From the NCBI GenBank assembly GCA_038087875.1, contig CM075989.1, forward strand, positions 4,340,001 through 4,404,000: DNA of 64,000 nt. The letters run 5' to 3'. Numbering within the stretch: the first letter of the stretch is position 1; each line of letters starts with the position of its first letter. Of the stretch, positions 10,176 to 62,938 are shown in pieces. Both the position numbers and the translations under genes were made by a program. The notes beneath the pieces are model-generated. The model saw only the letters and a list, made by a program, of their open reading frames with translations, was not told the DNA's origin and made no database searches. Origin of the DNA: Malacoraja senta (taxonomy: Eukaryota).

Positions 10176-10495
10176 ACAGACGCAAAATGCTGGAGGAATT
10201 CAGCGGGTCAGGCAGCATCCGTGGAGGGAAATGGACAGATGACATTCTGGGTCGGGACCTTTCTTCAGACTGATCATCAGTCCCAACGTGAACTGTTGTC
10301 TGTCCATCTCCTTCCACAGATGATTCCTGACCATGCTGCCTTTCTTGTTTAAGAAGGAACTGCAGATGCTGGAAAATCGAAGGTAGACAAAAATGCTGGA
10401 GCAAAGGAAATAGGCAACGTTTCGGGTCGAGACCCTTCTTCAGCTACTTTTCTTGTTTGGTTAAGTTTCCAGCATCTGCAATTTCTTTTGTCTCA
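10176..10495. mobile_element. Penelope pLTR/hammerhead inverted element with a second copy nested at 10351-10442
   Basis: Arms in opposite orientation. The nested copy is flanked by a 16-bp direct repeat (10335-10350 / 10443-10458). Confidence 0.8.
10416..10443 (-). ncRNA. Minimal hammerhead ribozyme motif
   Basis: Minus strand reads CUGAAGA-aGGGUCucGACCC-GAAACGUU. Confidence 0.7.
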
Positions 10496-10729
10496 ACTTG
10501 TTAAAAAAGCTAAACCCTGGTGCTTAAACTTTTCCCTTTCCCAACGTGACGGACTTAGGTAATCTATAATATTCCCATTCTCCCACTAGGTAAAGGCTTC
10601 ATTTATGTATAATTTTATTCTAACCACAGTCCGCCAGAGTAAAGGAGAGGGTCGGGGTTTAAATGCCAAATTTTAAAATCAATTTTTAGGTAAAGTATCT
10701 GATTGGAACTTCAGCCCTGAGAGACAATG

Positions 10730-11245
10730 GTAGAAACAAGGAACTGCAGGTGCTAGTCAACAAAAAAAGGTACAACATCCTGGAGTAACACAGAGGGTCA
10801 GGTATTATCTCTGGAGAACATGGACAGGTAACGTTTCAGCTTGGGACCCTTCTTGTGACTGATTGTAGAGGTGGGGGGAAGAAAGATAAAAGAGAGGGGG
10901 GGCAGGACAGTCAGGCAGGTGATACAAGTAAGGAGGGGGTTTGATAGGCAGAAGGTTGGATAAAGGCCGGAATTGAAAAGACATAGGTGTGAGACAAAAG
11001 GATAGAGTTGCGAATTGTGAAGCTAGAGGAAGGAATGTACATAAGGGGAGAGTTAAGGTGGGGTCCAGGGGAGGGGGGAAAGTAAGGTGGGGTTATATGG
11101 GAGAAGAAGAGAGAGGGGGAGTGTTACGTAGATATAAAATTGGAGAATTCAATGTTTATAACAGCTACCCAAACTAAATATCAGTTGTTCCTCTTGTTTG
11201 TATGTGACCTCACTCTGGCAATGGAGGAGGCCCAGGACAGAAAGA
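10730..11245 (-). mobile_element. Penelope-like element 3' fragment
   Basis: pLTR, polypurine spacer and reverse GIY-YIG C-terminal sequence (CTCACTCTGGCAATGGAGGAGGCCCAGG). Confidence 0.8.
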
Positions 11246-11372
11246 CAATGCTAGCAAACTGGATTAAACTTATGTTACCCTGGATTCTCATTTATGTGCA
11301 CACTCAATTTTTAAGCATGGCCAAAATATTTTGACTAATTCTAAATTTCCCTCAGAGTAATTATCACAGAAT

Positions 11373-11687
11373 GGGCAGCACGGTGGCATAGCAGTAGAGC
11401 TACTGCCTTACAGCGCCAGAGTCCCAGGTTCAATCCTGACCACGGGTGCTTGCCTGTTTGTACGTTCTCCCTGTGACCCACGTGGGTTTTCTCTGAGATC
11501 TTTGGTTTCCTCCCACACTCCAGAGACGTACAGGTTTGTAGGTTAATTAGCTTGGTATAAAATGTATCATTGTCCCTCATGTGTGTAGGATAGTGTTAAT
11601 GCGCAGGGATCGCTGGTCGGTGTGGACTGGATGGGCCGAAGGGCCTGTTGCCGAGCTGTATCTCTAAACTAAACTAAACTAAACTAA
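11373..11687 (+). mobile_element. HE1-like SINE
   Basis: Full-length copy with (CTAAA)n tail. Confidence 0.9.
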
Positions 11688-12734
11688 GAACATTGGACCT
11701 TGTGAGATAACCAGTTCCAGAGGATAAAGTTTAAATCAATCATTGTTAAGCAAAAGTTATGGTCATAAGTGAAGATTCATAAAAAAGGGTTTATAGATTT
11801 TTGGCGAAATTTTACATCATTCAGTCTGTGAGTCCATATCAGTTCAATTAACAACCAGTGAGATTAACTACAAGGAACAAAGTGACTTGAATTTTAAGCT
11901 TGTCACTTAACAGCGATGCATATTTATCAACAGAGTGCGAAAAATAATAGTATCCTCCGATCAGAATGTCATCAGCAGGCAGCTGGAAACAATGGATGTC
12001 AGCGCTGAGACATAGATAATGTATGAATAAGTTCAAGTTCAGGTTCAAGTTTCAAGTTTGTGTTTCTTGTCACTTAACTAAGGTACAGTGAAATTTGAGT
12101 TACCATACAACCATACTAAATGAAAAGCAACGATACCATTTAACACAATTTAACATAGACATCCACCACAGTGGAATCCACATTCCTCACTGTGATGGAA
12201 GACAATAAAGTTTAGTCATCTTCCTCCTTTGTTCATCCTTGGTGGTTGGGGGCTTTGATCCCTCAGCAGTCGCCGCTGCCGACAGTCCGATGTCTGACGG
12301 CCTCACGTCGGGATGATGGAAAGTCCGGCGTCGGGACGGATTGGAGCACCAAAGTCGGCCTCTTCTTACCGGAGACCGTGGCTTCATGGTGTGAAAATCC
12401 ACGGTCGGTAAGTCCGCGATGGTAAGTCCGCGCCGCCCCCCGCAGCTTGAAGCTCCGAGCCAGGTCTCCAGGAAAGGCCGCACCAATCCAAGTTGTTAGG
12501 CCGCAAATGTGTATTCTGATGGAGATACTATGACAATACAACAACAATTATTGGAGTAACTCAACGGGTCAGGCGGCATCTGTGGAGGGAACGGACAGAT
12601 GAATGTTTGGGTCAGCACTTTTCTTCACACAGATATTACCACTGGTTTTATTCCAGCAAAGAATAAAAAAGAAACTCAGAAAAATGGAAAAGAGGGACTT
12701 TGATTCGAATTCATGATTCAAGTCAACAATGTTG

Positions 12735-12985
12735 CGGGGCGGCAAGGTGACGCAGCGGTAGAGTTGCTGCCTTACAGCGCCAGAGACCCAGGCTCGATCC
12801 TGAGTACGGGTGCTGTCTGTACGGAGTTTGTACGTTCTCTCCGTGACGTCTGGGTTTTCCCCGGGTCTTCTGGTTTCTTCACACACTCAAAAGACGTACA
12901 GCTATGTAGATTAATTTTGCTTTGATAAAAATTGTAAATTGTTCCTAATGTGTAGGATAGTGTTAGAGTACAGGGATTGCTGGTT
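12735..12985 (+). mobile_element. HE1-like SINE (3'-truncated by a Penelope fragment)
   Basis: Family consensus up to GGATTGCTGGTTGGC. Confidence 0.85.
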
Positions 12986-13932
12986 GGCAGACTGGGCAAC
13001 CATTTCCTTGAACACCTACACTCAGTCCGCCTTGGCCTACGCGATCTCCCAGTTGCCAAACATTTAAACTTTGACTCCTTTCCCATTTCTTTACTGACCT
13101 TTCTGTTTGTTAAGATTGTTAAGGGCTTGGACACGCTAGAGGCAGGAAACATGTTCCCGATGTTGGGGGAGTCCAGAACCAGGGGCCACAGTTTAAGAAT
13201 AAGGAGTAAGCCATTTAGAACAGAGACGAGGAAACACTTTTTCTCACAGAGAGTGGAGAGTCTGTGGCATTCTCTGCCTCAGAGAGCGGTGGAGGCAGGT
13301 TCTCTGGATGCTTTCAAGAGAGATCTAGATAGGGCTCTTAAAAATAGCGGAGTCAGGGGATATGGGAAGGCAGGAATGGGGTACTGATTGGGGATGATCA
13401 GCCATGATCACATTGAATGGCGGTGCTGGCTGGAAGGGCCGAATGGCCTACTCCTGCACCTATTGTCTATTGTCTATTATCCTGGGCCTCCTCCATTGTC
13501 AGTGAGGCGAAACACAAATTGGAGGAACAGCGCCTCATATTTCACTTGGGCAGCTTAAAACCCAGCGGCATGAATATTAATTTCTCTAATATCAATTAAC
13601 CCTTGCATTCCCTCTCTCTCCATCGTTCCCCACCCTAGTCCTCTTACTAATTTCACCATTTGTACCCCTTCATTATCACCTCGTCCCCAGCCAACATTGG
13701 ACCATTGTGGGCTCTATTGTTGGCTTTCCCGAGCCATCGGTGCAGACCGCTTTGCTCTGTACCTTCCCATACCTCTAGTTTCCCTCTCCCTGGCTCTCAG
13801 TCTGAAGAAAAGTCTTGACCCGAAATGCCACCTATTCCTTTTCTCCAGAGATGCTGCCTGACCCACTGAGTTACTCCAGCACTTTGTGTCTATCTTCGGT
13901 GTAAACTATCGTCTGCAGTTCCTTCCGACACA
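12986..13932 (+). mobile_element. Penelope-like element 3' part (GIY-YIG C-terminus plus pLTR) with CR1 fragment nested at ~13110-13478
   Basis: RLGNHFLEHLHSVR...DLPVAKHLN, then KHKLEEQRLIFHLGSLKPSGMNINFSN. pLTR with a degenerate hammerhead at 13802-13830. Confidence 0.88.
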
Positions 13933-14920: not shown

Positions 14921-14994
14921 ATGTAAATTATGTCGAAATTCTTCCAAGTACCAATGGAAATAAAACATCTGGGTTAAAGAAATTATCACAAAAG

Positions 14995-16678
14995 CAATTT
15001 TCCTTCTGCAATTGCTATACCTCTTTCAATCAATCCGGATATATCTCCCAGAAAATGTCTTTAAAAAAGTTGATTCTATTGTGACAAGTTTTATTTGGGA
15101 TTATAAGAATCACAGAATAAGCAAAAAACACCTATGTAAACCCAAGACCAAAGGAGGATTCGTTTTACCAAACTTTTTATTTTATTTTTGGGCAGTCAAT
15201 GTCAAAAATATGAATTTTTGGTTGGAAGATATGGATCAACAACCAGACTGGTTAAAGATGGAAAAGGAAGATTGTTTGCCTTTTGAAATTGGTCCGATCC
15301 TGTTAGCTCCTACAAAACTGAATTAAAAAATCTATAGTGAAAACCCTATAATATATAGTGGAATTCGAATTTGGAAACTATTAAAAAAGTCATTAAAATT
15401 GGATAATTTATCATTTTCTCTCCCCATTGCAAATAATCCTTCATTTAAACCCTCAGTGTTGGATAAAGGTTTTGTACAATGGAAAAATCATGGAATTAAA
15501 AAGATGCGACATCTTTATAGAAATGGTATTTTTCTTTCATTTCAGGAACTACAACAGAATTATGGATTACATTCAAATATTTTTTTTAGATACTTACAAC
15601 TTAAAGATTATGTTAAATCACATACACAAGAATACAGAACTAGAGAACCAGAGATTCTAGATGAATGTTTGAATAAACACCCTAATACAGATAAATTAAT
15701 ATCTTATATTTATAATATTCTTTTAGACAGTGAGACTCCGTCGACGGAATTATATAGATTAGCATGGGAAAAGGAATTAGCCCAACCTATAACAAAAGAT
15801 ATTTGGGATGAAAGTTTACAACATATACATCAATGTTCATTAAATGCCAGACACTCTTTAATACAATTTAAAGTACTACATAGATTGCATTATTCAAAAA
15901 CAAAATTAAATAGAATCTTTCCTAATATCTCTCCTATTTGTGATAAATGCCAATACTCATCGGCTAATTTAACCCATACTTTTGTAAATTGTATAAAAAT
16001 TAAAAATTATTGGATGGATATTTTTAAAATAATCTCTGTAGTTGTTAATACTCAACTGGATCCCGATTCTAAATTAATAATATTGGGCATGTCAGAACAA
16101 TACCTAAAACTTACAACAAACCAAAGAAATTTCCTTGACTACAGCATAATAATTGGGAAAAAATTAATATTAAAATTTTGGAAAAACCCTGCAACCCCCA
16201 CAATTAGGATGTGGATTATGGAGATGTCGGAGACATTATATTTGGAAAAAATTAGATATGTCTTAATTGACAAACCAGAATTATTTACTAAAATATGGTC
16301 TCCATTTATAGATTATCTGAAGGGGTAGACTGGTCCGGCACGGAGGCCTGACTGAAACCTGAACCCAGGACTGGATGAATAGTTACGTTTTCTGACCTAT
16401 GGACCTTTCTCCTAAGTTGTATTATTGATAGTTTATCTTACTTTATTAATTTCTTCTTTTTATTTCTTTATTTTTATTATCTATAAATATAAATAAATAA
16501 TTAGAGGCAACGTTAATATGTAACCGATAAAGGAGGACCCCAGCTACTTTGGTAACTGGGTATCCGGAACCCTGGATACTTAATATGTAATCGTTATACA
16601 AAGTTTGTAATGGGTTGGACTAAGATATGCAGATACCTTTAATAAAAAATTACAATTAAAAAAAATAATAATAATAAT
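14995..16678 (+). mobile_element. 5'-truncated L1 (LINE-1) with 14-bp TSD
   Basis: ORF2 C-terminus in 15012-15326 and 15399-16328 (FKVLHRLHYS, CDKC...HTFVNC), AATAAA and A/TAA tail. TSD AATTATCACAAAAG at 14981-14994 and 16679-16692. Confidence 0.93.
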
Positions 16679-17308: not shown

Positions 17309-17539
17309 TGTAGGAATGAACTGCATGCAGATGCTGGTTTAAACCGAAGATAGACACAAAATGCTGGAGTAGCTCAGCGGGACAGGCAGCATCTCTGGAG
17401 AGGCAGCATCTCTGGAGAGATGTTTTACGTTGAGACACTTCTTCAGACTGAAGGAAGGTCTCGACCCTAAACGTCACCCATTCCTTCGCTCCAGAGATGC
17501 TGCCTGTCCCGCTAAATTACTCCAGCATTTTGTGTGTAT
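17309..17539. mobile_element. Penelope pLTR/hammerhead inverted-dimer element
   Basis: Inverted arms; TSD CCCAGRTATGGTACA at 17294-17308 / 17540-17554. Confidence 0.85.
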
Positions 17540-17914
17540 CCCAGATATGGTACACACTGCAGATGGCCCTATTTTCATTAGGCCTTCCACTGTAACCTGC
17601 TCTTTCACAGAACCTGAAGCTGCAGAATTTGTCTCCATATAAAATGTATACAAACCTTCTTCACATTGAAATATAAATGAATTGGAAACACATTATATAC
17701 ACATTATGTGCTGTGTCTACTTTAAATGAGCACCAGTCATCCAGAAACCACAAAGTTCATTCCTGCAGGGCATAGAACGATAGTGGGACATCACTTTCTT
17801 GGCTTACTTCTCTTCTTTAATCCTTAAGACTTAAAAAATAATCTTAGCATAAAATAAGTTAGTCAATCACCACATCTTTCTTCCGATTCTCAAAAGATGA
17901 GGTGATAGAGACTA

Positions 17915-19950: not shown

Positions 19951-20150
19951 CCCCCCCCTCATCCAACTAAACTCCAGGCATCTTTCTAAACCTTACATGC
20001 GCTTCCATTTTCCTATTAATGAAAGTTACAACCTCTTTGGTCATTCAAGGTGCCCTAACCTTGCCATCCCTATCCTTCCTTCTTACTGGAACTTACTGGT
20101 CTTAACTTCAGATCAGCTGGACTTTAAAAGTCTCCCACGTGTCAGATGTG

Positions 20151-20371
20151 TAGGAAGGAACTGCAGATGCTGGTTTAAACTGAAGATAGACACAAAAAAC
20201 TGGAGTAACTCAGCGGAACAGGCAGCATCTCTGGGGAAACGGAACAGGTGGCGTTTCAGGTTGAGACCCTTCTTCAGGTCTGATGAAGAGTCTCAAACTG
20301 AAACGTCGCCTATTCCTTTTCTCCAGAGATGCTGCCTGTCCTGCTGAGTTACTCCAGCTTTTTGTGTCTAT
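20151..20371. mobile_element. Penelope pLTR/hammerhead inverted-dimer element
   Basis: Inverted arms meeting at ~20278; 17-bp imperfect TSD at 20134-20150 / 20372-20388. Confidence 0.85.
20276..20311 (+). ncRNA. Minimal hammerhead ribozyme motif with canonical CUGAUGA core
   Basis: AGGU-CUGAUGA-agAGUcucaaACU-GAAACGUC-GCCU; 4-bp stem I possible. Confidence 0.62.
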
Positions 20372-20411
20372 CCCTCATATCAGATGTGGATGTACCCATG
20401 GCGGATTGAAT

Positions 20412-21212: not shown

Positions 21213-21846
21213 TAAAACCTGTCGATTGTGGGGAGGTCAGTACCTCTGATGGACCAGGCAGCGTCTACCACTCTGTTGTTTCCTGGGCCAGGCTGTGACG
21301 TAACCAGTGAGTATGCTCTCTATCGTACACCTGTAGAAGGTTGCTGACATACTGAATCTCCGCAATGGAGGCATTGGTGAGCTTTCCTCGTGATTGCTTT
21401 GGTGTACTGGGCCCAGGACAGATCTTCTAAGATATCCATGCCCAGGAATTGGAGGCCGCTGCCTCTCTCTACTGCTGTCCCATTGATGAAGACAGGTTCG
21501 TTCGGAGCAAGGTTATTGTTCTGGCAGCATTCAATTAGATTTTCAATCTCCCTCCTTTAATTTAAAATATTTAAATTATTAACTGAACATAATACCAAGC
21601 ATTCCATTTCCAGGTTTTCTATATTGGTAATACTTGGCAGGGATAACTGCAGCACAATTTTATGTAACTACATGTTTGTAATGAGTGCAATTCAAAACAA
21701 ATTTGTCCTGAGCTATCCTGAATGAGGTGTTTTATAAACACAATCATGCCTTTGTCTTACTCGCCACATAATATGCATACAATATTTTTTTCATATTCAC
21801 TGAATGAATTGGAAAAGCATTATATGCACATTAAGTCCCAGTACCT

Positions 21847-22053
21847 TAGATAGACAGAAAAAGCTGGAGTAATTCAGCAGGTCAGACAGCATCTCTGGAA
21901 AAAAGGAATAGGTGATGTTTCAGATTTCAAAAGGGTCTTGACCCGAAACGTCACCCATTCCTTTTCTCCGGAAATGCTGCTTGCCCACTGAGTTACTCCA
22001 GTTTTGTGTGTCTATCTTCGATTTAAACCAGCATCTGCAGTTCCTTCCTACAC
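21847..22053. mobile_element. Penelope pLTR inverted-dimer element
   Basis: Inverted arms; TSD at 21833-21846 / 22054-22067; empty paralogous site at ~17706-17718. Confidence 0.85.
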
Positions 22054-22925: not shown

Positions 22926-24019
22926 AAAACATTCGCTCTGCCTTGCCACCCGCGGCAAAAATTAACCTGAACCTAAGGGAGAGGAATCCTAAAATGACAC
23001 AAAGTGCTGGAGTAGCTCAGCAGGTTGGGCAGCATCTCTGGACAACGTTTGGGTCAGGACCCTTCTTCAGACTGATTGTCAGAGAAGAGAAGAAATCCCG
23101 AAGAGGGGAGAGACGGGACAAAGTGTGGCAGGTAATAGGTGGATGTTGGCGAGGTGGGTTATTGATAGGCAGATGGTTAGAACACAGGCCAGAGGTTAAA
23201 GGAATTCTGGCAGATGTACTGTGGGCACAGAGACCAACTTACCACCTCAACCACTACACAAAATGAGCAAACCTGCACACCATACAGCAGGAATCCGAAC
23301 TGAAGCCTTTTGCTGAGTTAGCTCCTATGTTTAATGAAACAGGGTGCATGTGATTCTGTGCAACAGAATTTGAAGATAAAGAATTAACTAGTAGAAATAA
23401 TAATGGAGATTGAACTAGTCCCACATGGGTGTTGAAAGGATTCGCAAGCATAATGGTTAAAGGATGGTATGATTCAAATGCTAGAGTTTTTAAAAATATT
23501 TGTAAAAACTGATTAGAGACCTTCTCGACCCAAAACGTTGCCTATTTCCTTCGCTCCATAGATGCTGCCTCACCCATTGAGTTTCCCCAGCATTTTTGTC
23601 TACCTTCGATTTTCCAGCATCTGCAGTTCCTTCTTAAACAGAGACCTGCATCATGATAGTTCATCATAGCTTGCCTAGTAAATGGGGAGCTAAAACGTAT
23701 ACTTGCCTTAGGAAGGGGAAAGTGAAATAAAAGCCAGTTCACAGTTCAGGAGAGCTTTCCACTAGATCTGACTGTCAAATAGAGGTGGACCTGACTGATG
23801 TGACCATGAAATGAGCACACAAAGTGCAGGAGGAACTCAGCAGATCAGGCAGCATCTGGGGAGGGAATGAATGGATAGGCGATGTTTCGGGTTAGGACCA
23901 TTCTTCAAGAGTCAATATTCTGGACTCTTGAACAAGAGTCAAGAATGTTTAATTTTTATAGGCAGCAACAACAGAACAATGAACAGACAGGATTGATTGG
24001 ACAAACGACAATATTGGTT

Positions 24020-24915
24020 TACAGAAAAAGACACAGAGTGCTGCAGTAACTCAGCGGGACAGGCAGCATATCTGGAGAACATGGATAGATGACATTCTGA
24101 GTCAGGACCCTTCTTCAGACTAAAGGGGCTGTCCCACTACGAGTTCATTCAAGAGCTCTCCCGAGTTTAAAAAAAAAATCAAACTCATGGTAAGCACGTA
24201 GAATGTACGTAGCGGGTACGTCGGAGCTCGGGACGTCTCTTAGCGGCTCGTAACACTAACGGCAGGTACTCAGGAAATGTGGTAAGCTCGTGAAGACTTA
24301 TGAAGACTTTTCAACATGTTGAACATTTTTCAAGGTTGAAAAATGTCCACGAGAGCCCCGAGTACCTACGAGCGGCTATTACCGTAATTCTCCGAGTCAG
24401 GGGAAACTCGGGAGAACTCTTGAATTAGCTCGTACAGTGGGACAGCCACTTTATTGTGGTGGCGGTGGAGAAAGCTGGAAGAGAGGAAGGGCAGGAGAAA
24501 GCCCGGCAAGTGATAGGTGGATGCAGGTAAAGGGGGGTTTGATAGGCAGATGTTTGGACTAAGGCCAGCGATTAAAAGATAAATGCTGTGAGATTAGAGG
24601 TGTGAATTGTGAAGCCAGAGGAAAGAATATCGGCAGAAGGGCTGTTCCTCCTGTTTACATGTGATCTCACTCTGGCAATGGAGGAGGCCCAGAACAGAAA
24701 GGTCAGTGTAGGAATGGGAAGAGGTGTTAAAATGGTTGGCAACCGGGAGATCCAGCAGTACGTAGCGGACTGAGCTCAAGTGTTCGGCGAAAAGCCCAAC
24801 AAGTCTACGGTTGTTCTTGCCGATGTACAGGAGGCCACATCGCAGACACCTGATGCAGTAGATGAAGTTAGAAGAGCTGCACGTGTACCTCTGGAAGGAC
24901 CTCTGGGACACCGGC
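24020..24915 (-). mobile_element. Penelope-like element with GIY-YIG endonuclease remnant (MITE inserted at 24124-24450)
   Basis: ORF 24594-24989: TCSSSNFIYCIRCLRCGLLYIGKNNRRL...FAEHL...PVANHFN (GIY-YIG with CxxC). pLTR at 24020-24120. Confidence 0.9.
24124..24450. mobile_element. PIF/Harbinger-like MITE (CTCG/CGAG family)
   Basis: TIR AGGGGCTGTCCCACT / AGTGGGACAGCCACT; flanks TAA/TTA; related to 34819-35135. Confidence 0.85.
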
Positions 24916-24916
24916 A

Positions 24917-26140
24917 GCTCTGTGTCCTGCACTGCTCTCACTCCTACTCCACCCGAATGGAACAAGGATGGAGTTCCACTGGCCTTCACCTTTCACTCTA
25001 CCAGTCTCCGCATCCAAACATCTTTCACTGGCATTTCCACCTTCTTCAATGTGATCCCATCACCAGCTCACACTCAAACTGGAGGAACAGCACCTCATAT
25101 TCCTCCAGAGTAGCATACAACCCAACGATGTGAACATTGAATTTTTCACTTTCATGTAACTAAACGTAACCCTCTTTTCCTTTCCTTTCCCTATGAATCT
25201 GAAGAAGGGTCCCAACCGGAAACATCACATGTCCTTGTTCTCCAGAGATGCTGTCAGACCTGCTGAATTACTGGAGCAGCACCTCATAGTTCGTTTGGGT
25301 AGTTTACACCCCAGTGGTAAGAACATTGACTTCTCCAATTTCAGGTAGTCCTTGCTTTCTCCCTCTTTCCAGATTCACCAGACTGATTCCTGGGATGTCA
25401 GGACTGTCTTATGAAGAAAGACTGGATAGACTTGGTTTATACTCTCTAGAATTTAGGAGATTGAGAGGGGATCTTATAGAAACTTACAAAATTCTTAAGG
25501 GGTTGGACAGGCTAGATGCAGGAAGATTGCTCCCGATGTTGGGGAAGACCAGGACAAGGGGTCACAGCTTAAGGATAAGGGGGAAATCCTTTAAAACCGA
25601 GATGAGAAGAACTTTTTTCACACAGGGTGTGGTGAATCTCTGGAACTCTTTGCCACAGAGGGTAGTTGAGGCCAGTTCATTGGCTATATTTAAGAGGGAG
25701 TTAGATGTGGCCCTTGTGGCTAAAGGGATCAGAGGGTATGGAGAGAAGGCAGGTACGGGATACTGAGTTGGATGATCAGCCATGATCATATTGAATGGCG
25801 GTGCAGGCTCGAAGGGCCGAATGGCCTACTCCTGCACCTAATTTCTATGTTTCTATGTTTCTATGTTTCCCCTCCCCTTCCCAGCTCTCCCACAGCCCAC
25901 TGTCTCCGAATCTTCCTTTCTTCCTCCCGCCCCTCCCTACTCCCACATCAGTCTGAAGAAGGGTCTCGACCCGAAACGTCACCCATTCTTTCGCTCCATA
26001 GATGCTGCCTCACCCGCTGAGTTTCTCCAGCACTTTTGTCTACCTTCGATTGTTCCAGCATCTGCAGTCCCTTTTTAAACATGCTGAATTACTCCAACAT
26101 CTTGTGTCTTATTTTGTAAACCAGGATCTGCAGTTGCTTG
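24917..26140 (+). mobile_element. Plus-strand Penelope fragments (inverted relative to 24020-24915); second Penelope 3' end at 25273-26081 containing a CR1 at 25372-25866
   Basis: NKDGVPLAFTFHSTSLRIQ and KLEEQHLI motifs; TSD TGCTGAATTACT at 25261-25272 / 26082-26093; CR1 ORF 25314-25766. Confidence 0.85.
25953..25980 (+). ncRNA. Minimal hammerhead ribozyme motif
   Basis: CTGAAGA AGGGTC TC GACCC GAAA CGTC. Confidence 0.72.
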
Positions 26141-31330: not shown

Positions 31331-31478
31331 CCTTTGGACATAGTGAAGGGTTTTACAACCATTGAAGTTCATTTGAACTGTTTTCACTTTGATACTTGGT
31401 CTCTGATGAGCAATCTAACTTTTCTCAGCCTTGGAAATGGAAAGTAAAATTGGGCTCAGTCAGCAACAGACTCTCAGT

Positions 31479-31506
31479 CTGAAGAAGGGTCTTGACCCGA
31501 AACGTC
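31479..31506 (+). ncRNA. Minimal hammerhead ribozyme motif in a solo Penelope pLTR (31470-31609)
   Basis: CTGAAGA AGGGTC TT GACCC GAAA CGTC. Confidence 0.72.
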
Positions 31507-32430
31507 ACCCATTCCTTCTCTCCAGACGTGCTGCCTGTCCCGCTAAGTTACTCCAGCATTTTGGGTCTAACTTCTCTGTAAGCCAACATCTACAGTTCCT
31601 TCCTGCACAGGTTAAAATTTGGTTTGATTTGCCAGAGGTACCTTCCTGCATTTCAATGATCGGACATCCCACCATCACCTTCACACCCAATGTGAAAGAG
31701 GAATGTTTGACATTCTCTTTAAAGAGTGAAATCCGCAAAACATGCTTCAGTCATTGTCAAAAGTTGGGGAGAAAAACCAGTTCAGTGGGTCGAGTTGATT
31801 CTCTCCATTATGCTTGTGGCCACCAGCGAATTAGATATTAATCCTTAAACAACATATGAGCTTTGACCGTTCCAACAGCCTATAATTATAAAACAAAGAC
31901 TCAGCACCCTTGAACTGAATTCTCAAGATAGAAGCAATAAAACCCAGGAATTATCTTTTTTATAAATCCCTCCACAAAGTGCTGAGGGTTTAATAATGAT
32001 GCTCTGGGCAATGTCAATCCTTCTACTGACAATCTCACAAACATAGCATGGGGACTCAGGGTCAAATCGTGATCGATGAATGAAATGGTTCCACTCTCTG
32101 CACTGGCCGCATGAGTCTGGATAGTTTGAACCCATTTCCTAGTTGGCATGAGTACTCCCAGCCCATCAGTAGTTGTCCATGTTACAACCACGAGGTCAGC
32201 ACGGACCCTGTGGGCCCAAGGGCCTGTTCCTGCGCTGTACTGTTCCATGTTTGGGGGTGGCTGGACAGAAAACAGGAATATTGTCAAGAGTCAAGAGTGT
32301 TTTATTGCCATATGTGCCAAACAGAACAATACAATTCTTACTTACATCTGCACAACAGAACATGTAAACATAGTACTCTGTAAACAATATAATAAATGAA
32401 AAAAAGTTCAGTATATATATATATATATAT

Positions 32431-33184: not shown

Positions 33185-33625
33185 GAAACAAGAAACTGCA
33201 AAAGTTGGTTCACAAAAGAAGGCGTAAAAAGTGTTGGGGAAGGGTTTAAAGAAGGGTTCCGGCCTAAGACGTCACTTATCAATGTTCTCCAGAGATGCTG
33301 CCTGACCCGCTGAGTTACTACAGAACTTTGTGTCTTCCTATGAATCTTGTGGACTTCTTCTGAGATCGGTGTTGTACGATATTATTGTGGTCACATCACA
33401 GAACTTTGCAGCAAAAGATAGACACAAATAGCTGAAGTAACACAGCAGATCAGGCAGCATCTCTGGAGGAAAAGGATGGGTGACATCTCTGGTTGGGACC
33501 GACCTGAAGAAGGGTTCTGACCTGAAACGTCCCCTATCCTTTTCCTCCAGATGCTGCCTGACCCAATGAATTACTCCTGCACTTTGTGTCTATCTCTGCT
33601 ATACCACAGCATCTGCAGTTTTTTT
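33185..33625. mobile_element. Cluster of Penelope pLTR/hammerhead inverted elements (motif at 33504-33531)
   Basis: Family consensus in both orientations; CTGAAGAAGGGTTCTGACCTGAAACGTC. Confidence 0.8.
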
Positions 33626-33976
33626 ATTTCGTCTATTTTTACTCTACAGCTTACTGAAGCTGCATTTTTCTCAAAAAAAGGAACAATGTGCAGGCAGCAT
33701 TATTCTATATCTCATGGTCATGAATTTGACTTTGGTAAAAATTGTAAATTGTCCTAGTGTGTAGGATAGTGCTATTTTACGGGATGATCACTGGTCGGTG
33801 TGGACTCGGTGGGCCGAAGAGCCTGTTTCCGCACTGCATCTCTAAAGTCTAAATTCTAGAACTGCTTGCTTATCTACACGTTAACTCTCAGTAACTCAAG
33901 TGCAAGCCACCCAGGCCTTTTTAATATCAACATCTTTCTTCTACTTCTCTACTATTTCCACCTTATAATTTTCAGT

Positions 33977-34124
33977 AACTCAGCGGGTGAGGCAGCATCT
34001 CTGGAGAGAAGGAATGGGCGACGTTTTGGTTTAAATCCAAGGTAGACACATGCTGGAGTAAATCAGGTACTCCAGCATGTTGTGTCTACCTTGGATTTAA
34101 AACAGCATCTTCAGTTCTTTCTTA
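33977..34124. mobile_element. Rearranged Penelope pLTR element with 18-bp TSD
   Basis: TSD CACMTTATAWTTTTCAGT at 33959-33976 / 34125-34142. Confidence 0.78.
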
Positions 34125-37546: not shown

Positions 37547-37663
37547 GTCGGAAGGAACTGCAGATGCTGGTTTAAACCGAATATAGACACATAAAGCTAG
37601 AGTAACTCTCTAGAGATCGTGTCTGTCCCGCTGAGTTACTCCAGCTTTTTGTGTCTATCTTTG
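37547..37663. mobile_element. Short Penelope pLTR inverted element in a Rex1-type 3' remnant
   Basis: Perfect 13-bp TSD CACTAAAAACTGT at 37534-37546 / 37664-37676. Confidence 0.85.
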
Positions 37664-37787
37664 CACTAAAAACTGTCTTGGTTGCACAAGAGACATTTGG
37701 CTTGTTTTGTACTAATATTGCTTCATTAATTTATTCTTTTTTGTTGTTTATTGGTGTATTTTGTGTGTTCTGTGTTTACAGACCTGT

Positions 37788-40454: not shown

Positions 40455-40690
40455 AACACTGACTTCTCCAATTACAGGTAGTCCTTGCTTTCTCGCTCCT
40501 TCCTCTTCCATTCCCAGCTATCCCACAGCCTACTATCTCCGCCTCTTCCTTTCTTTTTCCTGACCCCTCCCCCCCCCCCCTCACCCCCACGATATCAGTC
40601 TGAAGAAGGGTCTCGACCCGAAACGTCGCTTATTCCTTCGCTCCATAGATGCTGCCTCACCCGCTGAGTTTCTCCAGCTTTTTTGACTAC
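40455..40690 (+). mobile_element. Penelope 3' end plus pLTR with 12-bp TSD
   Basis: TSD CAGCAAGCCATG at 40443-40454 / 40691-40702. Confidence 0.88.
40600..40627 (+). ncRNA. Minimal hammerhead ribozyme motif
   Basis: (AGT)CTGAAGA AGGGTC TC GACCC GAAA CGTC(GCT); 3-bp stem I possible. Confidence 0.72.
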
Positions 40691-40819
40691 CAGCAAGCCA
40701 TGTAAGGAGAGTTCGGATAAAAATGACTTGAAGTTTGACCAATAAAGTAAATCAAAGAACATCTTGAAGGAAGAAAGTGCGATGGAAAGTTTCTTAGCAC
40801 CAATTTGACTGAGAGAACA

Positions 40820-42584: not shown

Positions 42585-42804
42585 TAAGAAGGAACTGCAG
42601 ATGCTGGAAATTCGAAGGTAGATAAAAATGCAGGAGAAACTCAGCAGGTGCGGCAGCATCTATGGAGCGAAGGAAATAGGCAACGTTTCGGGCCAAAACT
42701 CTTCTGTATGTCTGAAGAAGGGTTTCGGTCCGAAACGTTGCCTATTTCCTTCGCTCCATAGATGCTGCCGCACCCGCTGAGTTTCTCCAGCATTTTTGTC
42801 TACC
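42585..42804. mobile_element. Penelope pLTR/hammerhead inverted-dimer element (motif 42712-42739, GUU site)
   Basis: ~95-bp near-perfect inverted arms; 17-bp TSD at 42568-42584 / 42805-42821. Confidence 0.88.
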
Positions 42805-43399
42805 CTAAACTTCAGTTCGTTATTTTTAAACTGATCTCCTATATTGGGAATGAAAGAAAGATCTCGCCTCTTTCTCTCTTCTTATTCTATCTTTTGCCTG
42901 TCCACTGTTCTATCAAAATTCTAATTGCAAAAGCAACTTAAATTTGTTTTGCCCTTAAACATAGTAAAACTTCCTTGGGATGTTATGACGAAAAAAATGA
43001 TGTTAAGCCATATGAGATATGAAGGCAGATGTCTAAATCTTGGTTAAAGGGATAGAACGGAGAGGAGGGGAGAGTAGCACAGAGATACTTGGAGAAGAAA
43101 GTTCAGAGCTAATTTAGTGGCGATGCTCTCCAGTCTACAATTAAAGGGACATAAGTACCTTGCAGAGTTTATTGGTCAAGAGATCACAAGAGTTAACCAG
43201 GGACAACATAAAAAGGGAATCTGAAAACAAAGGAAGACATTTTAAAACAATCTATAATTAAAAGCCAACACAGGAACTACAAGCGGATAGAACCAAGAAT
43301 GTAAACTAGAAAGTAGACTGCAGAATTGGATGACCCCACGTTTAGAGAGTCTGTGTGAACTAATAACATGGCTGAGAAGTCCCTCAGCAGATAAGCAAA

Positions 43400-44060: not shown

Positions 44061-44369
44061 AAATGCTGCCTGACCTGCTGAGTTGGTCCAGCGCTGCCTT
44101 TTGCTCAAGGATGTAATTTCACCTGCCTTTAACGGTCCCCCATCTATTCTAGGCTGAGCTTTACAACAATCCTACATTGTAGTTCCAATCATGTTCTCCG
44201 TAAATAGACATTGTTAGGAGCACGGGATGAAAGAATTATACCTTCCCCTCCCAGGTTTCACATTCCCAGCAACCAGGTCATTGGAAACAGTTGCTTGGTT
44301 ACCAATTGGGGAACTAAGCAAAAAGAGTCCAACAAGAGGAAGTGTGAAATAGAATCTGAAAAATGGTGG

Positions 44370-44852
44370 AGACAGACACAAAGTGCTGGAGTAACTCAGC
44401 AGGTCAGGCAGCTTCTCTGGAGAAAAAGAATAGGTGATGTTTCGGGTCGAGACCCTACTTCAGACTTATTAATTATAATGTCTATAGTAAAGATGAAGGA
44501 ATGGGAGCCAGGAAAACAGGTCATCAAAGAAAAAAAGGGCATGTCTTAATTAAGAAGGGTTTTCGCCCGAAAAGTTGCCTTTTTCCTTCGCTCCACAGAT
44601 GCTGCCTCACCCGCTGAGTTTCTCCAGCATTTTTGCCTACCTTAGATTTTCCAGCATCTTCAGTTCCTTCTTAAAGAGAAAAAGGGCATGTGAGGTGTCT
44701 TGGACATATGTTGGGAGGGATCGGACCAGGGGGGATAGGATGGAGTCTCATCGTCTATTCTTTTTCTCCAGAGATGCTGCCTGACCCTCTGAGTTACTCC
44801 AGCATTTTGTGTCTATCTTCTGTAAACCAGCATCTGCAGTTCCTTCCTACAC
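44370..44852. mobile_element. Cluster of Penelope pLTR copies; the copy at 44545-44672 has a 19-bp TSD
   Basis: TSD AAAGARAAAAAGGGCATGT at 44526-44544 / 44673-44691. Confidence 0.82.
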
Positions 44853-49610: not shown

Positions 49611-49786
49611 TCTGAGCATCTCTGGAGAAAAGAAATAGATGATGTTTCGGGTCGAGACCCTTCTTCATTTCAACCCGAAACGTCACCTATTCCTTTTCTC
49701 CAGACATGGTGCCTGACCTGCTGAGTTACTCCAGCATTTAGTGTCTATCTTCGGTGTGAACCAGCATCTGCAGTTCCTTCCTACAC

Positions 49787-50504: not shown

Positions 50505-50854
50505 CAGACCCATTCTGAAGAAGGGTCCCATCCGGAAATGTCACCTATCCATGTTACCCAGAGATGCTGCTGATCCGTTGAGTTACTCCAGCACTTTGTG
50601 TCTTTTTTTATAAACCATCATCTGCAGCTCCTTGTTTCTACATCTTCTTCTAAAGGTGTAGGAAGGAAGTGCAGATGCTGGTTTACACCGAAGATAGACA
50701 CAAAATGGTGGAACAACTCAGCGGGACAGTTCCTATCTCTGGACGGGAATGGGTGACTTCTTCTGAAGAAGGATCTCGACCCGAAACGTCACCCATTCCT
50801 TCTATCCAGAGATGCTGCCTGTCCTGCTGAGTTACTCCAGCTTTTTGTGCCTAC
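50505..50854. mobile_element. Penelope pLTR plus inverted-dimer element (50657-50854; hammerhead motif 50763-50790)
   Basis: TSD CTTMTTCTAAAGG at 50644-50656 / 50855-50867. Confidence 0.85.
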
Positions 50855-51249
50855 CTTATTCTAAAGGATTGAGAGCTTCTATGGCATGTATGATTCAAGG
50901 GTAGAGAAAGGCACATAATCATACACACATGGTTTGTGAACTCCCCATTTTCCATCACTTTCCTCAGAATCAACAGTGAAGTCACTTCTGCTTCATACTT
51001 CCATTGTTTCTTTAGACCAGTCATCAAGATTGGAAATTACAGCCTTAAAATCCTTCCACTAAGCAGCCAGTGGATTTATTTCTTCAACCCTGCATTTTCC
51101 TCAGGAGAAGTATTCAGCGTTTTTTGTCATCGAGCTACTAGAGAAACCTTCTAACCATCTGGTCATCTGTCTGACCAGCAGGTAAATCTTGTTGCAGTTA
51201 TCTTTACCTCCTTGGACTTTTATTGATGTGTTTATTTAGAGGGGGGGGG

Positions 51250-54072: not shown

Positions 54073-54341
54073 TAATTGGTCAATCACTTTTCTATTAACT
54101 TTTATCCTATTAAATCCATTCTCCATTCTAGAGGTACAGAAATATATTTCACTCATCTTAAACTCATCTTTAATTGACTAACCCTCTATCGATCTCCTGC
54201 CAGTACTTCTGTTGCTTGTTATATGTTGATTTATTTGTGATTGCTCTTGATTCAAGCCCCTGCTTTTCCCTCTCACATTGGAAGTGGAGCATTCAACCTC
54301 CAAACAAATTCCCAATTAATTATATATCGGTATAAATATTT

Positions 54342-54536
54342 ACAAGGAACAGCAAATGCTAGTTTACAAAAAAGACACAAAGTGCTGGAGTAACTCAGCG
54401 GGTCTGTAAGAATCTCTGGAGAACATGATTAGGTGACATTTTGGCCTGAAGAAGGGTCCCGACCTGAAACGTCGCCTATCCATGTTTTCCAGAGGTGCTG
54501 CCTGACCTGCTGAGTTACTCCAGCACTTTGTGTCTT
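54342..54536. mobile_element. Penelope pLTR/hammerhead inverted-dimer element (motif 54446-54473)
   Basis: (GGC)CTGAAGA AGGGTC CC GACCT GAAA CGTC(GCC). Confidence 0.85.
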
Positions 54537-54688
54537 TAAAAGAATCTTGATCGCTTTGAAAGAGTTAATGAGTGTTGCATCAACTGTTGATGGGGATTCT
54601 GTACCACATGAATAGTTTGCCTTCTCAATTCATTATTGCATTTTTGTTTATGATATATTAACTGCGTATTGTGTTTGGAAGCCGGTTA

Positions 54689-55358: not shown

Positions 55359-57260
55359 AACTTAACTTCTGAATTCATTCGGTTAATCTTCAGTGTGACT
55401 CTTTGCCCCTACCAGTGAAACTAATACTTGTTCTACGCATGTACTGAATTATCTTATATCTACATCATTCCCACACAATTTCAGTGCATGGAACAAATTC
55501 CTTTATGTATTACACTGTAACGAAAGAAAGTTGGATTCTGTGAGTCACACACTTCTATTCACCATGAATTATCAATGCACCAAAGTGGGAGATTAGTCTA
55601 TCATCTTCTCACCAATGTTTCCCTCCTAAATCCCTCAAATGAATTCAAAATATAAGCTGTTTATTTCACCTGATCTTCGTGTGAACCAAATATGGATGGC
55701 ACACCGTTTATACTTTTCTTCGCTAATTTTCATTTTGCTTTGGCACCAGAGATGAAAAGGGACCAATTCAAAATGCACTACAGTGCAATGCCATTCTAAT
55801 TTTCAATGCTGCTTTGTGAGGCTGTGTGTTCTGAAACTTGCCAGAAACAAGAGAATAACCAGAAAGTCAGTGAGATATTTTTACAATTTTAAGCTGTTCT
55901 TAATCTTTGGGAAAAACGTACGTGTGAAATTGTCGTGGTCATTTTGGCCTCATTTGCTTCGACTACAGGAGGGGTAGTGTTGAGCCAAGTAGAACAATCA
56001 CTGTCCTGTCTTGAAGAGGGTGGTCTATCTCCTGGCAGATGCCAAGCTTCCCCACGTCGCTCTTTTTAATTACAGCATGCAAAGAAGCATTCATTGCCCA
56101 TTTCCAGTTCCTCTGTAGCGGCTGAGAAAGAAAGACAATTTACATTAATGGCACAACTTCGGAAGTTCAGTGGGAAGTGAGTGAAAGAAAGCATGGTTGT
56201 TGGGATATTTGTTCCAAGCTTTGGAGAATTTAGAAGATAAATGGGGTGGTTTGAGATAATTGATGATCGAGAGGAATTGAGGGTTGTTAAGGGAGTGATT
56301 TCACTTAATTTGCCCTTGTTTGGACTTGAAAGTTGTCGCGGAAATTGTCGTGATTTAAATCATAGTGCAGTCAGCGTAACTTTGCTCGAAAATAGACAAC
56401 AGACAATAGGGGCAGGAGTAGGCCTTTTGGCCCTTCCGAATATTCGGCATCGATAAAAATGTGGGAGGCACGCACCAGTTGTAGAAAGAGAATAACTGCA
56501 ACTTTGCACATTAGGTCCGATTCATCAAACTAACATCCTTGGCACCAATACTTACTCAAGGGGAGCAGAATTCAGAGAGTCAGGAATGCAGTAAAAGCAA
56601 GATGAGGGATCTGGAGTATTTCAACGTATGTTAAAAAAATAAAAAATAAATAAAATTTGCAAAAATCATGGGGAAAAAACAGGAATATGATAAAAATCAC
56701 AGTTGCCTTGATACACGTGACCTCCGTGACCAAACTGCCGTCTTACGGCAGACTTGATTCAGAGTTTAAGGCAAAAAGAAACTCATTAAATTGAAATCAT
56801 TTCTATTAACAACTGTGACCACTACAAAACTAACTCAGCCACAATTACGTAAAGGTTAATCGGGCCAATTCATTAGTCGCTGAGAATTTTCTCATCTCAC
56901 CAGAGTTGTTTGCACAAAAAAGTTCAACTGTAAAAATAAATGCGTTGCAAGGAACTACGGATGCCGTTATGTAAAGAAAATAGACACAAAGTGCTGGAGT
57001 AACTCAGCGGGTCAAGCAGCAACTCTGGAGAAAAAGGCTGGGTCACAGTTCGGGTTGGGACCCTTCTTCAGAAAAATAAACCCCTGAACTTTGAGAACAA
57101 TAACAAAATAAAGAAGATAGATTAGTAGAATATTGGTGAAATTATGCCATCTCACTGGTACTCTTTCCTCAAAGTTACCGCCAAGCAAGGGTGTTTTTAT
57201 GGTAAGATGAAATTATAAAGTGAAGTAAAAATTACAAAATTAAACTATAAACGAAAAATC

Positions 57261-57555: not shown

Positions 57556-57649
57556 TCACATTTGTTTAAATGTAAAATGCAGCATGTGACATCTTTGCTG
57601 ATACCTTTGAAAGGGATAGGCTGCCATTAAAAGCACTCTTCAAGCTGCG

Positions 57650-58120: not shown

Positions 58121-58307
58121 ACGAACTCTGAGACGTGGGAGAGGGTAACAGAATTAGCCCACAGTGGTCAGAAGGGAGGAAATGGAGTGCCTGCAATCCT
58201 GAACTACACATATGGGAGATTGTCTTTGAAGTCAAAGGAAGTCACAAACCTCCTTGAGGCAAGGAACGCCACTTGATTGTTTGCGCTTCAAACAGCACAG
58301 AGTTTCT

Positions 58308-58602: not shown

Positions 58603-60349
58603 CTGGCCGCAAAACACAAAAGTTTGGCTCAAGGGGATGACTTTCAATCCATCGCAGAGAGGTAGCTGCTCTGCTACTTAGGAAACCCTGAGCCAGAATC
58701 AGGTCGTCTACCAATAATTTAACACCAGGTTCCCCCACGAACAAACAGTGTGCTTTAAGTTTCAGAAAACTCTGTGGCTAAATAATGACTATCGGTTTTC
58801 TGACTGGTGAGTTGAAATATTTGACTGTGGACACATCTCCCTGAGGCACTCCTGTTGATGCCACTTGAGAGAGTTTTACATTGGAAAACAGGTGCCCGAA
58901 GAAGGCCCAGATGTAAAGCCTCCAAACAAATATCACAATGAAAAATGAGGAACAAATTCACAACCAGACTGCAAGGCACTCAGAGATACACAGCGTGCTA
59001 AGTTGTTTTACTCTAGGTTTACCACTGTTTTTGTGAAAGTGAACTGGGCCCCAAAATGAGGTTTGGTTATGGTGTTACCCACATTTCAAGTGCTATTAAA
59101 TGTGTAGAAAGGAACTGTAGATGCTGGTGTATGCCAAAGATAAACACTAAGCGCCAGAATAACTCAGCGGGTCAGGCAGTGTCTCTGGAGAAAAAGGATG
59201 GGTGACGTTTTGGGTCGGGACCCCACTTCTGAAATGTGTTCATTACAGAAGGCAAAGAGGAAGGATCAACAGTCACAGATTCAGTGAACCACCATTCACC
59301 ATTGTTACTCAAATGTCACCGTTTGACATTCTAAGGCTGGTGCAGTACGGCAGCAGTCGGGATCGAACCCGGGTCTCTGGCGCCGTAAAGCAGCAACTCT
59401 ACCACTGCGCCACCGTGCCGCCCGGCACTGTTCTTAACAGTTCAGCAATCATCAAATGTGAACAGAATATTTTGTATGAAATACTTAACTGAGGGAGTTG
59501 AACTAAAGATTAATAAAGAAGTTTATTAAAAAAAAACGATGACCGTCAGTTCGAGTTTGTTTCTGTTAAGTGAATCATTGTTGGTTATTTTGGAATGTGT
59601 TTTTGGTTTTTGGATAGGCGCATGGATATGCAGGGAATGGAGGTGATATGGATCACGTGCAAGCAGAGGAAATCAGTTTAACCTGGCCATCATGTTTGGC
59701 ACGGACATTATGGGCTGAAGGGCCTGTTCCTGTCTGTATTCTTCTATGTTCTATGTGTTCAGTTTTTAGCTGTCCCTGTCCAGAGTTCACAGGGTCCTTG
59801 GCAACTGCTGCTTTAAGTTGGTTGGATGTTCAGACCAGAAATGGTTAATGATGAGAGACTGGTGCCTGCGATACACAAAGACATTCCCAGATATTCAGCC
59901 AAGAGCAAGGAGTTGGTGATTAAGTGCAGGCTGACTGACAAACAAGCAGAGCTCATAGGCCTCATAGAGTCATACATCGTAGAAACAGGCCCTTCAGCCC
60001 AACTTGCCCACATTGACCAACATGTCCCATCTACACTAGTCCCACCTGTCTTCGTTTGGCCCAGGTCCCTCTAAACCTGTCCTATCCATAACTCCATGGA
60101 TTAATATTTGCGATGGACAACAGCTTTAGTTCTTCATGGCCAGACCAGGTTGATGGCATCACTTGAGCTTCATTTGGCTTCTTCACCATATGGCATAGTC
60201 ATGCGCATCACCTGCTTGCCAAACCTCTAAAAATGTACATGGGCCGACATAAAATATGTTTGGTAAAAAAACTAAATTGGTGGCTTGACAAAATGAGAGG
60301 CATTGATCACCACAAAAATGTCATGAGCAAAATGGTAAACTCTATATTA

Positions 60350-61410: not shown

Positions 61411-61885
61411 TTAAAGTCCCATCCTCTCTGGTGGAAGCTTGGCTTCTCGTGAGGATCTCAATGAAATCCCCAACATACACTTTATTGCCCTGGCATTAAG
61501 AGTGAAGCTTTGACTGTCTGGGCCTCTATACAGCACGGAACCTGAGTATTTGTAGACACAAAGAACTGCAGATGCTGGAATCTTCCGCAGAACACACTGT
61601 GCTGGAGTAACTCAGCGGAATGGGCAGCATCTCCGCAAGACATGGAAAGTCAATATTTCAGGTCGGGACCATTCTTTAGACCTCTGTATTTGGCCATCCC
61701 AAGTGAATTAGCTGTGAGCAGTAGTGGGTATCACAAATCATGACCGCCTCACCTGCTGAGAAGGAATATACACCAGGTTATTTGTGTAGGAAGGAATTGC
61801 AGATGCTGGCTTAAACCAAAGGTAGACACAAAAAGCTGGAGTAACTCAACGGGTCAGACAGCATCTCTGGAGAAAAGGAATAGGC

Positions 61886-61913
61886 GACGTTTCGGGTCGC
61901 GACCCTTCTTCAG
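61886..61913 (-). ncRNA. Minimal hammerhead ribozyme motif in a solo Penelope pLTR (61783-61913)
   Basis: Minus strand: CUGAAGA AGGGUC GC GACCC GAAA CGUC. Confidence 0.72.
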
Positions 61914-62059
61914 AATATTTTGTTCCTGACCACTATTCAGCAAGCCAGTGCATGTTGGCTGGCCCTGTGATCTTTGATTATTTCCCTAGACTTACTGAGA
62001 ATCACTATCTATATTCATGGTTAGAAAATAAGAAAAAAAGCTTCATGGCTATTGAAGTG

Positions 62060-62320
62060 GTTTTGAAATGTATTCATTGATGTAATAGAGACTGCACACC
62101 AGCCAATGTGAACACAGCAGGAAGCTACAGAGAACTACCAGATAAATGACCAGATAATCTCTTTTAATGATATTGGTTAAAGTGGAAGTGTTGGACAGGT
62201 CACCAGGTAAACTCCACCATTCTCCTGTTGAGCAGAGCAATGGGATCTTTCCCACCTATATGAAGGAGTAGACAAACCTTGGTTTAACCAACGTCTGAAG
62301 GACACTCTCACGGGACTGCA
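62060..62320 (-). mobile_element. Ancient DeuSINE (SacSINE1/AmnSINE1-like Deu domain), diverged
   Basis: CAGCCAATGTGAACACAGCA...AATGACCAGATAATCT...TGATATTGGTT...ATGGGATCTTT...CCTTGGTTTAAC follows the Deu-domain consensus order as I recall it. Confidence 0.7.
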
Positions 62321-62455
62321 TGAGAACCCTGAGAATGTATATCGTAAGCGACCCATACTCTGCAGAGTAGATAAGGAAGGTAAAACAAGTGGTAGGACAA
62401 AGCTCCATTTTCTCAACCTACTGTTCTACTTCTGCAAGAGAAGCAAAGCAATATA

Positions 62456-62695
62456 AGCATGGTGGCGCAGCGCTAGAGTTTCAGCCTTACAGCACCAGAG
62501 ACCCAGGTTTGATCCTGACTATGGGTGCTGCCTGTACGGAGTATGTACGTTCCCTCCCTGACCTGCATGGGTTTGCGCCAGGCGTTCCCTAGTGTGTGTA
62601 GGATAGCGCTTGTGTGTGGGGATCGCTGGTCGGCACGGACTTGGTGGGCCGAAGGGCCTGTTTCCGTGCTGTATCGCTACACCAAACAAAACTGA
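62456..62695 (+). mobile_element. HE1-like SINE with internal deletion
   Basis: Head and tail of the consensus are present. Confidence 0.85.
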
Positions 62696-62938
62696 ACAAA
62701 GTGCTGGAGTAACTCAGTGGGTCAGGCAGTATTTCTGGAGAACATGGATAGGTGACGTTATGGCTCAGGATACTTCTTCAGACAGAAATAAAGATGAAGT
62801 ACCTACATTTTAATAAACCTATTTGGGTAGAAATCTGGTTCGGCAATGGCAGTGGACAAAAAGTAAGTGTCTAAACTATCAGCAAAGAATTATTTTGAGA
62901 AGGGTTAATTTTTTAGGAAATTCCTGTTTTTTCATGTA

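Follow-up and report, generated by a model that had tools for sequence, protein, structure and literature searches.

Short insertions with fixed ends of a hammerhead-bearing Penelope-like element in the genome of Malacoraja senta

Minimal type-I hammerhead ribozymes have been described from the pseudo-long terminal repeats (pLTRs) of Penelope-like elements (PLEs), mostly as single dispersed motifs ascribed to truncated PLEs, with a CUGAnGA core, an extra base between positions 9 and 10.1, a G10.1-C11.1 pair, and a palindromic ACGU serving as helix III (PMC4209133). In this study, we analyse a window of 64,000 nucleotides from Malacoraja senta (assembly GCA_038087875.1, contig CM075989.1, forward-strand positions 4,340,001 to 4,404,000), in which a ~130-bp repeat with all of these features recurs, largely as short copies termed stubs below. 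Compared with the published single motifs, the repeat has a short stem II (4 bp), and its single copies have a fixed 5′ end rather than random truncation (PMC4209133).

The Poseidon element PAc of Anolis (PMC11167929) resembles the present element in having two 3′ ends ~35 nt apart downstream of the hammerhead, a tandem arrangement of pLTR and open reading frame (ORF), and no sign of templates starting at the cleavage site. In that system, reverse transcriptase (RT) initiates internally at two sites bounding the tail, both target strands are extended, the ribozyme cleaves only with protein, and uncleaved RNA is the main template (PMC11167929). Unlike in PAc, the ORF here begins at +164, beyond the tail, rather than in stem II (+1 being the first C of the CTGAAGA core, with cleavage predicted after +28), and the linker is CX4CxxC; run-off stubs at the RNA 5′ end are not described for PAc in the main text of PMC11167929. 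PLEs of the Neptune and Nematis clades (PMC8557442, PMC3846280), as here, combine RT, a CX2-5CxxC motif, and, at the C-terminal end, a GIY-YIG endonuclease (EN), and show partial tandems, an adjacent inverted copy, a tail at one end, short target duplications, and solo pLTRs. In those accounts, recombination or deletion gives rise to solo pLTRs, and self-priming to inversions, whereas most insertions here are 100-130-bp stubs with target duplications of their own.

All sequence data examined were genomic contigs. A profile hidden Markov model (HMM) trained on 12 window copies of the repeat matched 47 times in the window, whereas 20 order-2 Markov controls of equal length gave no match; 11 head-to-head pairs reduce the window matches to ~36 loci, one per 1.8 kb. 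A genome sample was drawn as 60 evenly spaced regions of 10 kb on 18 contigs among the largest (599.6 kb in total), and in it the same model gave 305 matches at ~248 loci, about one locus per 2.4 kb, covering 4.7% of bases. The initial annotation, which had counted about 30 sites of a ~130-bp repeat and about one copy per 2 kb, is thereby borne out. Extrapolation from this sample of the largest contigs to 1.94 Gb yields ~0.99 million copies, to which an older, decayed family adds further ones, and ~113,000 descriptor-intact hammerhead motifs; counts published for other genomes, made with different descriptors, are ~4,000 for coelacanth and ~9,000 for Xenopus (PMC4209133). The repeat may be characteristic of sharks and rays.

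The GIY-YIG fragment of the window produced 69,436 first-look candidates genome-wide. Of 30 loci fetched, 26 had the repeat no more than ~350 nt downstream on the same strand, and in a 27th it followed an insert. An RT query returned 150 scored matches at 98-100% identity, and six of 20 fetched loci contained an open frame of 1,224-1,302 aa between two repeat copies, starting just after one copy and ending 116 nt before the next. The 1,224-aa frame carries YIDD and DKG motifs, and a CX4CxxC linker at residue 1091. It matches Pfam RVT_1 at E=6.5e-6 and GIY-YIG at E=0.0015, neither of which reaches the curated cut-off; GIY-YIG exceeds its cut-off in a sister copy. A CX2-5CxxC linker before the endonuclease characterizes the Neptune and Nematis clades (PMC8557442), and the element is an endonuclease-containing (EN+) PLE, probably of Neptune type by this zinc-finger linker. 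Other EN+ PLE traits are likewise present, namely a single ORF with RT and C-terminal GIY-YIG, partial-tandem pLTRs, inverted copies, and an optional tail of 30-40 bp. The young subfamily, one 46-mer of which has 6,234 exact occurrences in the genome, is recently active, judging by 1,224-aa ORFs that are still intact and by near-identical copies numbering in the thousands. Since the repeat adjoins GIY-YIG loci and flanks intact ORFs, it is the pLTR end of a recently active EN+ PLE. At one locus (L061:3555-3566), the ORF start codon lies inside a splice-donor-like sequence just past the tail.

Most copies of this pLTR are short. A length filter retained 230 of the 305 sample matches. Of these, 75 are solo and start at the core, 79 belong to inverted pairs as arms, 56 have untranslated region (UTR) or ORF sequence upstream, and 20 start inside the core. 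Among 72 young copies, 25 have 5′ ends at 0 to -6 and one at -11, the other 46 being spread from -23 to beyond -1,500; 3′ ends fall at +91 to +98 in 48 copies and at +125 to +132 in 19, the remaining five ending at other positions, in four cases owing to slippage in a run of T. The two stub 3′ ends, at +94 and +130, enclose the segment known as the 'tail'. Because their ends are fixed, the short copies are not random truncations. Solo copies carry individual flanks; among 20 short copies without an inversion flag, 12 have target duplications of 10-15 nt, and in the window duplications of at least 8 nt were found in 10 of 37 rows, compared with 5.6% of controls.

The upstream limit of the stubs is a conserved initiator-like TCAGT situated 0-6 nt ahead of the core, of which CAGT is invariant in five subfamily consensuses. 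In genome-wide exact counts, the match is lost at -3 in 3,541 of 18,933 young copies (18.7%) and at -4 in 2,319 of 15,392 (15.1%), a small share of these losses being substitutions. G precedes the junction in 1,556 of the 3,541 (44%, background 32%) and in 931 of the 2,319 (40%, background 33%), and several loci have a single G between the target copy and AGT. Loose ends occur at the same three places in contigs from other organisms. At three loci (L192, L224, and L236), a short duplicate of the element's own 5′ end, ending 3-8 nt past the cleavage site, precedes the stub and is followed by an extra G, which suggests template re-entry after run-off.

We regard it as probable that the stubs are separate insertions, for which RT would initiate near +94 or +130 on an uncleaved RNA, likely capped and likely beginning at TCAGT, and copy it until it runs off the 5′ end. 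This reading is based on the pLTR identity of the repeat, its two 3′ ends, the pile-up of 5′ ends, the target duplications, the pairing of long with short arms, and the lack of a pile-up at the cleavage site. The initiator consensus is YYANWYY, which TCAGTCT matches with its A at -3. The transcript would begin at this A, and its first 135 nt would contain the two RT start sites, so that priming on the 5′ copy of the repeat would yield a cDNA running off the 5′ end, that is, a stub, whereas longer insertions would require either a read-through transcript primed at its downstream copy or a template jump. The extra G would be a copy of the cap, as has been proposed for the extra G at such junctions (PMC3287187), and an internal promoter in the pLTR has been described (PMC2377424). 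A start at -3 would also explain the short stem I. The ribozyme would cut only as a dimer or together with the element protein, and in inverted pairs both sites would be used on opposite target strands, the cDNA ends joining at short palindromes.

A wider version of this model is no more than tentative. It holds that a Penelope protein dimer primes both nicked strands at the two sites with run-off, that strong-stop-like stubs make up ~5% of a vertebrate genome and the largest reservoir of minimal-hammerhead motifs among the counts compared, that the palindromic helix III mainly pairs templates, and that stubs retaining the promoter may be recopied. Retroviral minus-strand strong-stop DNA is a short cDNA that is primed internally and reaches the 5′ end of the RNA. 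Compared with it, the product considered here would be target-primed and directly integrated, without a tRNA primer or integrase, so the likeness is one of analogy and not of membership.

Several observations count against run-off from a start at -3 or against an active ribozyme. The commonest junction is at -2, not -3, and some copies extend to -4 to -6; the excess of G is modest, is present at -3 as well as -4, and may partly reflect filler bases that copy element or target sequence; and TCAG-T-CTGA is itself palindromic and could favour fold-back at that place. The arms of adjacent pairs nearly always share alleles and give no support for two templates. Stem I is only 2 bp in the current subfamilies, and the active dimer fold is predicted at about -6 kcal/mol, compared with -21 to -29 for other dimer folds; the monomer, too, is predicted to fold otherwise than as a hammerhead, which argues against activity of the free RNA.

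Copying of the 3′ cleavage product was considered as a source of the stubs and rejected, since only two of 55 unpaired internal starts fall at +28 to +30. Between +24 and +33, 1,436 matches genome-wide (~2,800 junctions after filter correction) are spread out; in a hand tally of the first 100, 16 lay at +29 and 28 over +28 to +30, with about five indel rows unplaced, and the per-position level resembles the rest once two degenerate positions are pooled. There is thus no pile-up at the cleavage site, either in the sample starts or in the genome-wide matches.

Of 54 inverted, head-to-head pairs that could be evaluated, 44 consist of one long and one short arm (p=1.7e-6; 44 of 68 pairs overall), as do 28 of 32 rows of the young family, which include a few mispaired neighbours and one duplicate. 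Several junctions fall exactly on TCAG-T-CTGA or on nearby palindromes; the junctions vary by locus and none recurs. An origin of each pair from two different RNA templates is not supported, as the allele discordance at +29 (4 of 26) came mostly from mispaired, non-adjacent copies. The microRNA (miRNA) matches of an Rfam scan of the window, all below gathering scores, are inverted pairs; such pairs mimic miniature inverted-repeat transposable elements and miRNA hairpins, which calls for caution in annotation.

Alternative explanations of the stubs differ in how well they accommodate these data. It is unlikely that the stubs propagate themselves by keeping a promoter and an RT start site, being transcribed, and being recopied by the Penelope protein. 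The fixed ends and very high copy number would be expected on that account, and a stub could keep the promoter, which in Drosophila virilis lies downstream of the start site (PMC2377424), but copies linked to UTR or ORF sequence occur in all six diagnostic groups, both common haplotypes among 34 unselected copies include long members, inverted junctions do not recur, and a 384-bp ribozyme array described below has no daughters (13 matches, one locus). Although some alleles were seen only in short copies, those loci had been picked for shortness; a recopied stub, on the other hand, would look identical to a run-off product. The distinct ORF-less retroposon that the initial annotation had proposed meets the same difficulties and is not supported: the six groups, like the unassigned rest, each hold all classes of copy, with solo, inverted, and UTR- or ORF-linked members, both common young haplotypes have long members, and inverted junctions are locus-specific. 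No stub-only lineage was found among a few hundred copies, a number that rare ones could escape.

A truncation hot spot on read-through RNA, with RT stalling or folding back at TCAG-T-CTGA or at RNA structure and the endonuclease cutting the +94 end of pairs, is quite improbable as the cause of the 5′ pile-up. The majority of short copies lack a hairpin form and show simple target duplications, RT would have to stop past the 5′ strand of the predicted structures and not at their 3′ base, and both the excess of G and the sharp upstream limit would be left unexplained, even though several inverted junctions do fall on palindromes, arms share alleles, pairing between the 5′ end and the tail is possible in the young family, and self-priming (PMC3846280) and endonucleolytic resolution of tails (PMC8557442) have been proposed for PLEs. 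An origin of the stubs from spliced RNA, with a splice acceptor at the boundary, is very improbable, for despite a long pyrimidine tract ending in CAG just ahead of the core and a D. virilis intron that ends at helix I (PMC4209133), the stubs have no upstream exon in common and thousands retain G(-2) and A(-3), which would be intronic.

The hammerhead motif itself was assessed with a strict descriptor (core, stem II, and helix III), which gave 35 motifs in the 599.6-kb sample compared with 0.3 in controls; set against the 305 HMM matches, this means that most stubs are decayed. A minimal type-I hammerhead linked to a Penelope pLTR, as first suggested from the window alone, is supported by the descriptor, the subfamily consensuses, the PLE loci, and PMC4209133, and the motif has the conserved core, stem II, the palindromic positions 15.2-16.2, and the extra base after A9. 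The ten intact cores listed initially are all present in the sequence, but only eight pass the descriptor, stem II being broken in those at 20280 and 50763, and a 2-bp stem I is possible in only five of the eight; a 2-bp helix I has been reported for the D. virilis hammerhead (PMC4209133). An Rfam scan of the window returned no hammerhead among 18 matches up to E=5. The stem II loop does vary, as had been noted, although as a subfamily difference (CTCG/CCCG/TTCG), CpG decay, and single changes rather than as covariation.

Conservation was examined by comparing five subfamily consensuses, in which one of 15 core columns varies, at a CpG, compared with 35 of 98 columns downstream (p=0.019), so that the core is more conserved than its flank. 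The other changes lie in loop II, in a U-A to U-G replacement, at N17, and in an A/G swap opposite U in stem I, and one subfamily has T at +30, also a CpG position. Helix I of a minimal type-I hammerhead measures about 4-5 bp; the older decayed family (43 copies) appears by eye, in a weak consensus, to be able to form a stem I of ~4 bp with compensating changes. Core conservation points to probable selection on master elements, to which a promoter function could contribute. A match resembling the downstream promoter element at +25 to +29 was dropped as a candidate, its spacing not being kept in the older family.

Non-LTR retrozymes (PMC7229834; bioRxiv 10.64898/2026.07.22.740005) are, like the stubs, ORF-less, hammerhead-bearing, and related to pLTRs; they consist of head-to-tail units processed from cleavage site to cleavage site, whereas stubs occur singly or as head-to-head pairs, and their start lies ahead of the core. 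No head-to-tail hammerhead array was present in the window. Elsewhere in the genome, at L190:1718-6730 (G000:C1:28902217-28907229), a young-pLTR array of 13.1 head-to-tail units of 384 bp, 99% identical, has a hammerhead in each unit, ends at +92, and is flanked by an 11-bp duplication; it fits the retrozyme definition of those two sources, with a junction found at one locus only. A rolling-circle origin of this array was not established, given that the junction is unique to one locus and that a ribozyme-deficient array of 66-bp units also exists, namely about nine tandem units spanning +21 to +87, without the 5′ half of the ribozyme (L058:2009-2633). A stub at the identical position in a GC-rich repeat with a minisatellite on two chromosomes (L126:3968 and L121:1244) shows that stubs can multiply as passengers.

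Published precedents exist for pLTR-borne minimal hammerheads, for dispersed single motifs, and for tails and inversions, and the present element is of a known kind, with an unusually abundant and sharply bounded insertion product. Neither fixed-length run-off stubs nor the hammerhead of this PLE family turned up in the literature accessible to our searches. The junctions bear on the replication of PLEs and on the role of their hammerheads, whose function has been called unclear (PMC8557442), and thousands of near-identical young insertions together with intact ORFs make them readable at base resolution. They assign the two RT start sites known in vitro to the opposite ends of a single insertion, indicate a precise start of transcription, and show the main template to be something other than cleaved RNA. 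The run-off model would also account in a simple way for the solo minimal hammerheads dispersed in animal genomes.

Within the window, four repeat copies had been linked initially to GIY-YIG fragments. For those at 13798 (+), 24122 (-), and 25949 (+), EN coding sequence indeed lies upstream, split by later insertions, whereas at 40596 (+) only the 3′ UTR and last codons precede the repeat. The copy at 25949..26077 (+), recovered by both HMM and descriptor, has a long tail and an intact minimal core (25953-25980) with a 2-bp stem I; its PLE fragment includes an EN C-terminus (25265-25342), from which a later fragment of a long interspersed nuclear element (LINE) splits off the repeat. The copy at 13798..13929 (+) is the pLTR end of a 5′-truncated PLE with an EN C-terminus at 13501-13593 and further EN sequence at 12965-13105. 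Another 5′-truncated PLE, at 24011..24917 (-), consists of a GIY-YIG piece (24645-24917), 3′ UTR, an insert (24121-24453), and the repeat (24011-24122); the insert, 330 bp long with 50-bp inverted ends matching at 88%, resembles a non-autonomous DNA transposon. A 5′-truncated PLE of an older subfamily at 10736..11244 (-) has an EN C-terminus, UTR, and the repeat (10736-10861). The copy at 40596..40715 (+) has an intact core (40600-40627), a 2-bp stem I, and ~150 bp of PLE 3′ UTR ahead of it; that at 31475..31604 (+) has a long tail, an intact core (31479-31506), and ~10 nt of UTR upstream. Pyrimidine-rich UTR precedes the copy at 22991..23074 (-), and the copy at 25197..25277 (+) ends a rearranged PLE fragment.

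Stubs with recognizable target-site duplications include a solo stub at 10350..10443 (-), which starts at the core and has an internal deletion (10 bp duplicated), a long-tailed one at 44551..44673 (+; 13 bp), two starting at -1 at 56945..57073 (-; 9 bp) and 59104..59233 (-; 8 bp), and a stub truncated inside the core at 23523..23636 (+; 8 bp). The solo stub at 61786..61916 (-) has an intact core (61886-61913) without a stem I partner, that at 44357..44467 (-) starts at -3 (AGT) and has the short 3′ end, and the HMM-detected one at 50512..50635 (+) starts at about -2. The HMM further identified a solo stub with a short 3′ end at 33245..33342 (+), an older-subfamily copy at 10171..10272 (-), older-subfamily solo stubs at 12545..12630 (-) and 23817..23908 (-), and degenerate solo stubs at 61559..61681 (-) and 62696..62784 (-).

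Head-to-head pairs with a long and a short arm lie at 20150..20374 (+128 and +95; 9-bp duplication), 17311..17547 (9-bp duplication), 42585..42810 (young-type subfamily, core 42712-42739, 11-bp duplication), 21843..22051, and 33411..33625 (core 33504-33531). The pair at 37547..37670 is trimmed beyond the ribozyme and flanked by a 13-bp duplication, that at 50658..50881 has the stem II mismatch in core 50763, that at 54340..54559 contains core 54446-54473, and in that at 49615..49784 a LINE fragment cuts one arm; a rearranged three-piece inverted cluster occupies 33974..34124.

General scans of the window identified no host gene, and no search was aimed at host genes. LINE-type fragments lie at 287-691, 5583-6083, 14964-16328, 41701-42081, and 48815-49669, with RVT_1 matches at 287-691 and 48815-49669 and ALKBH8_N matches at 41701-42081 and 48815-49669. 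A 36/72-bp minisatellite at 3495-3817 of the window carries an open frame, and among the loci fetched elsewhere, L049:1-1000 contains a 333-aa open frame that by eye resembles a Tc1-type transposase.

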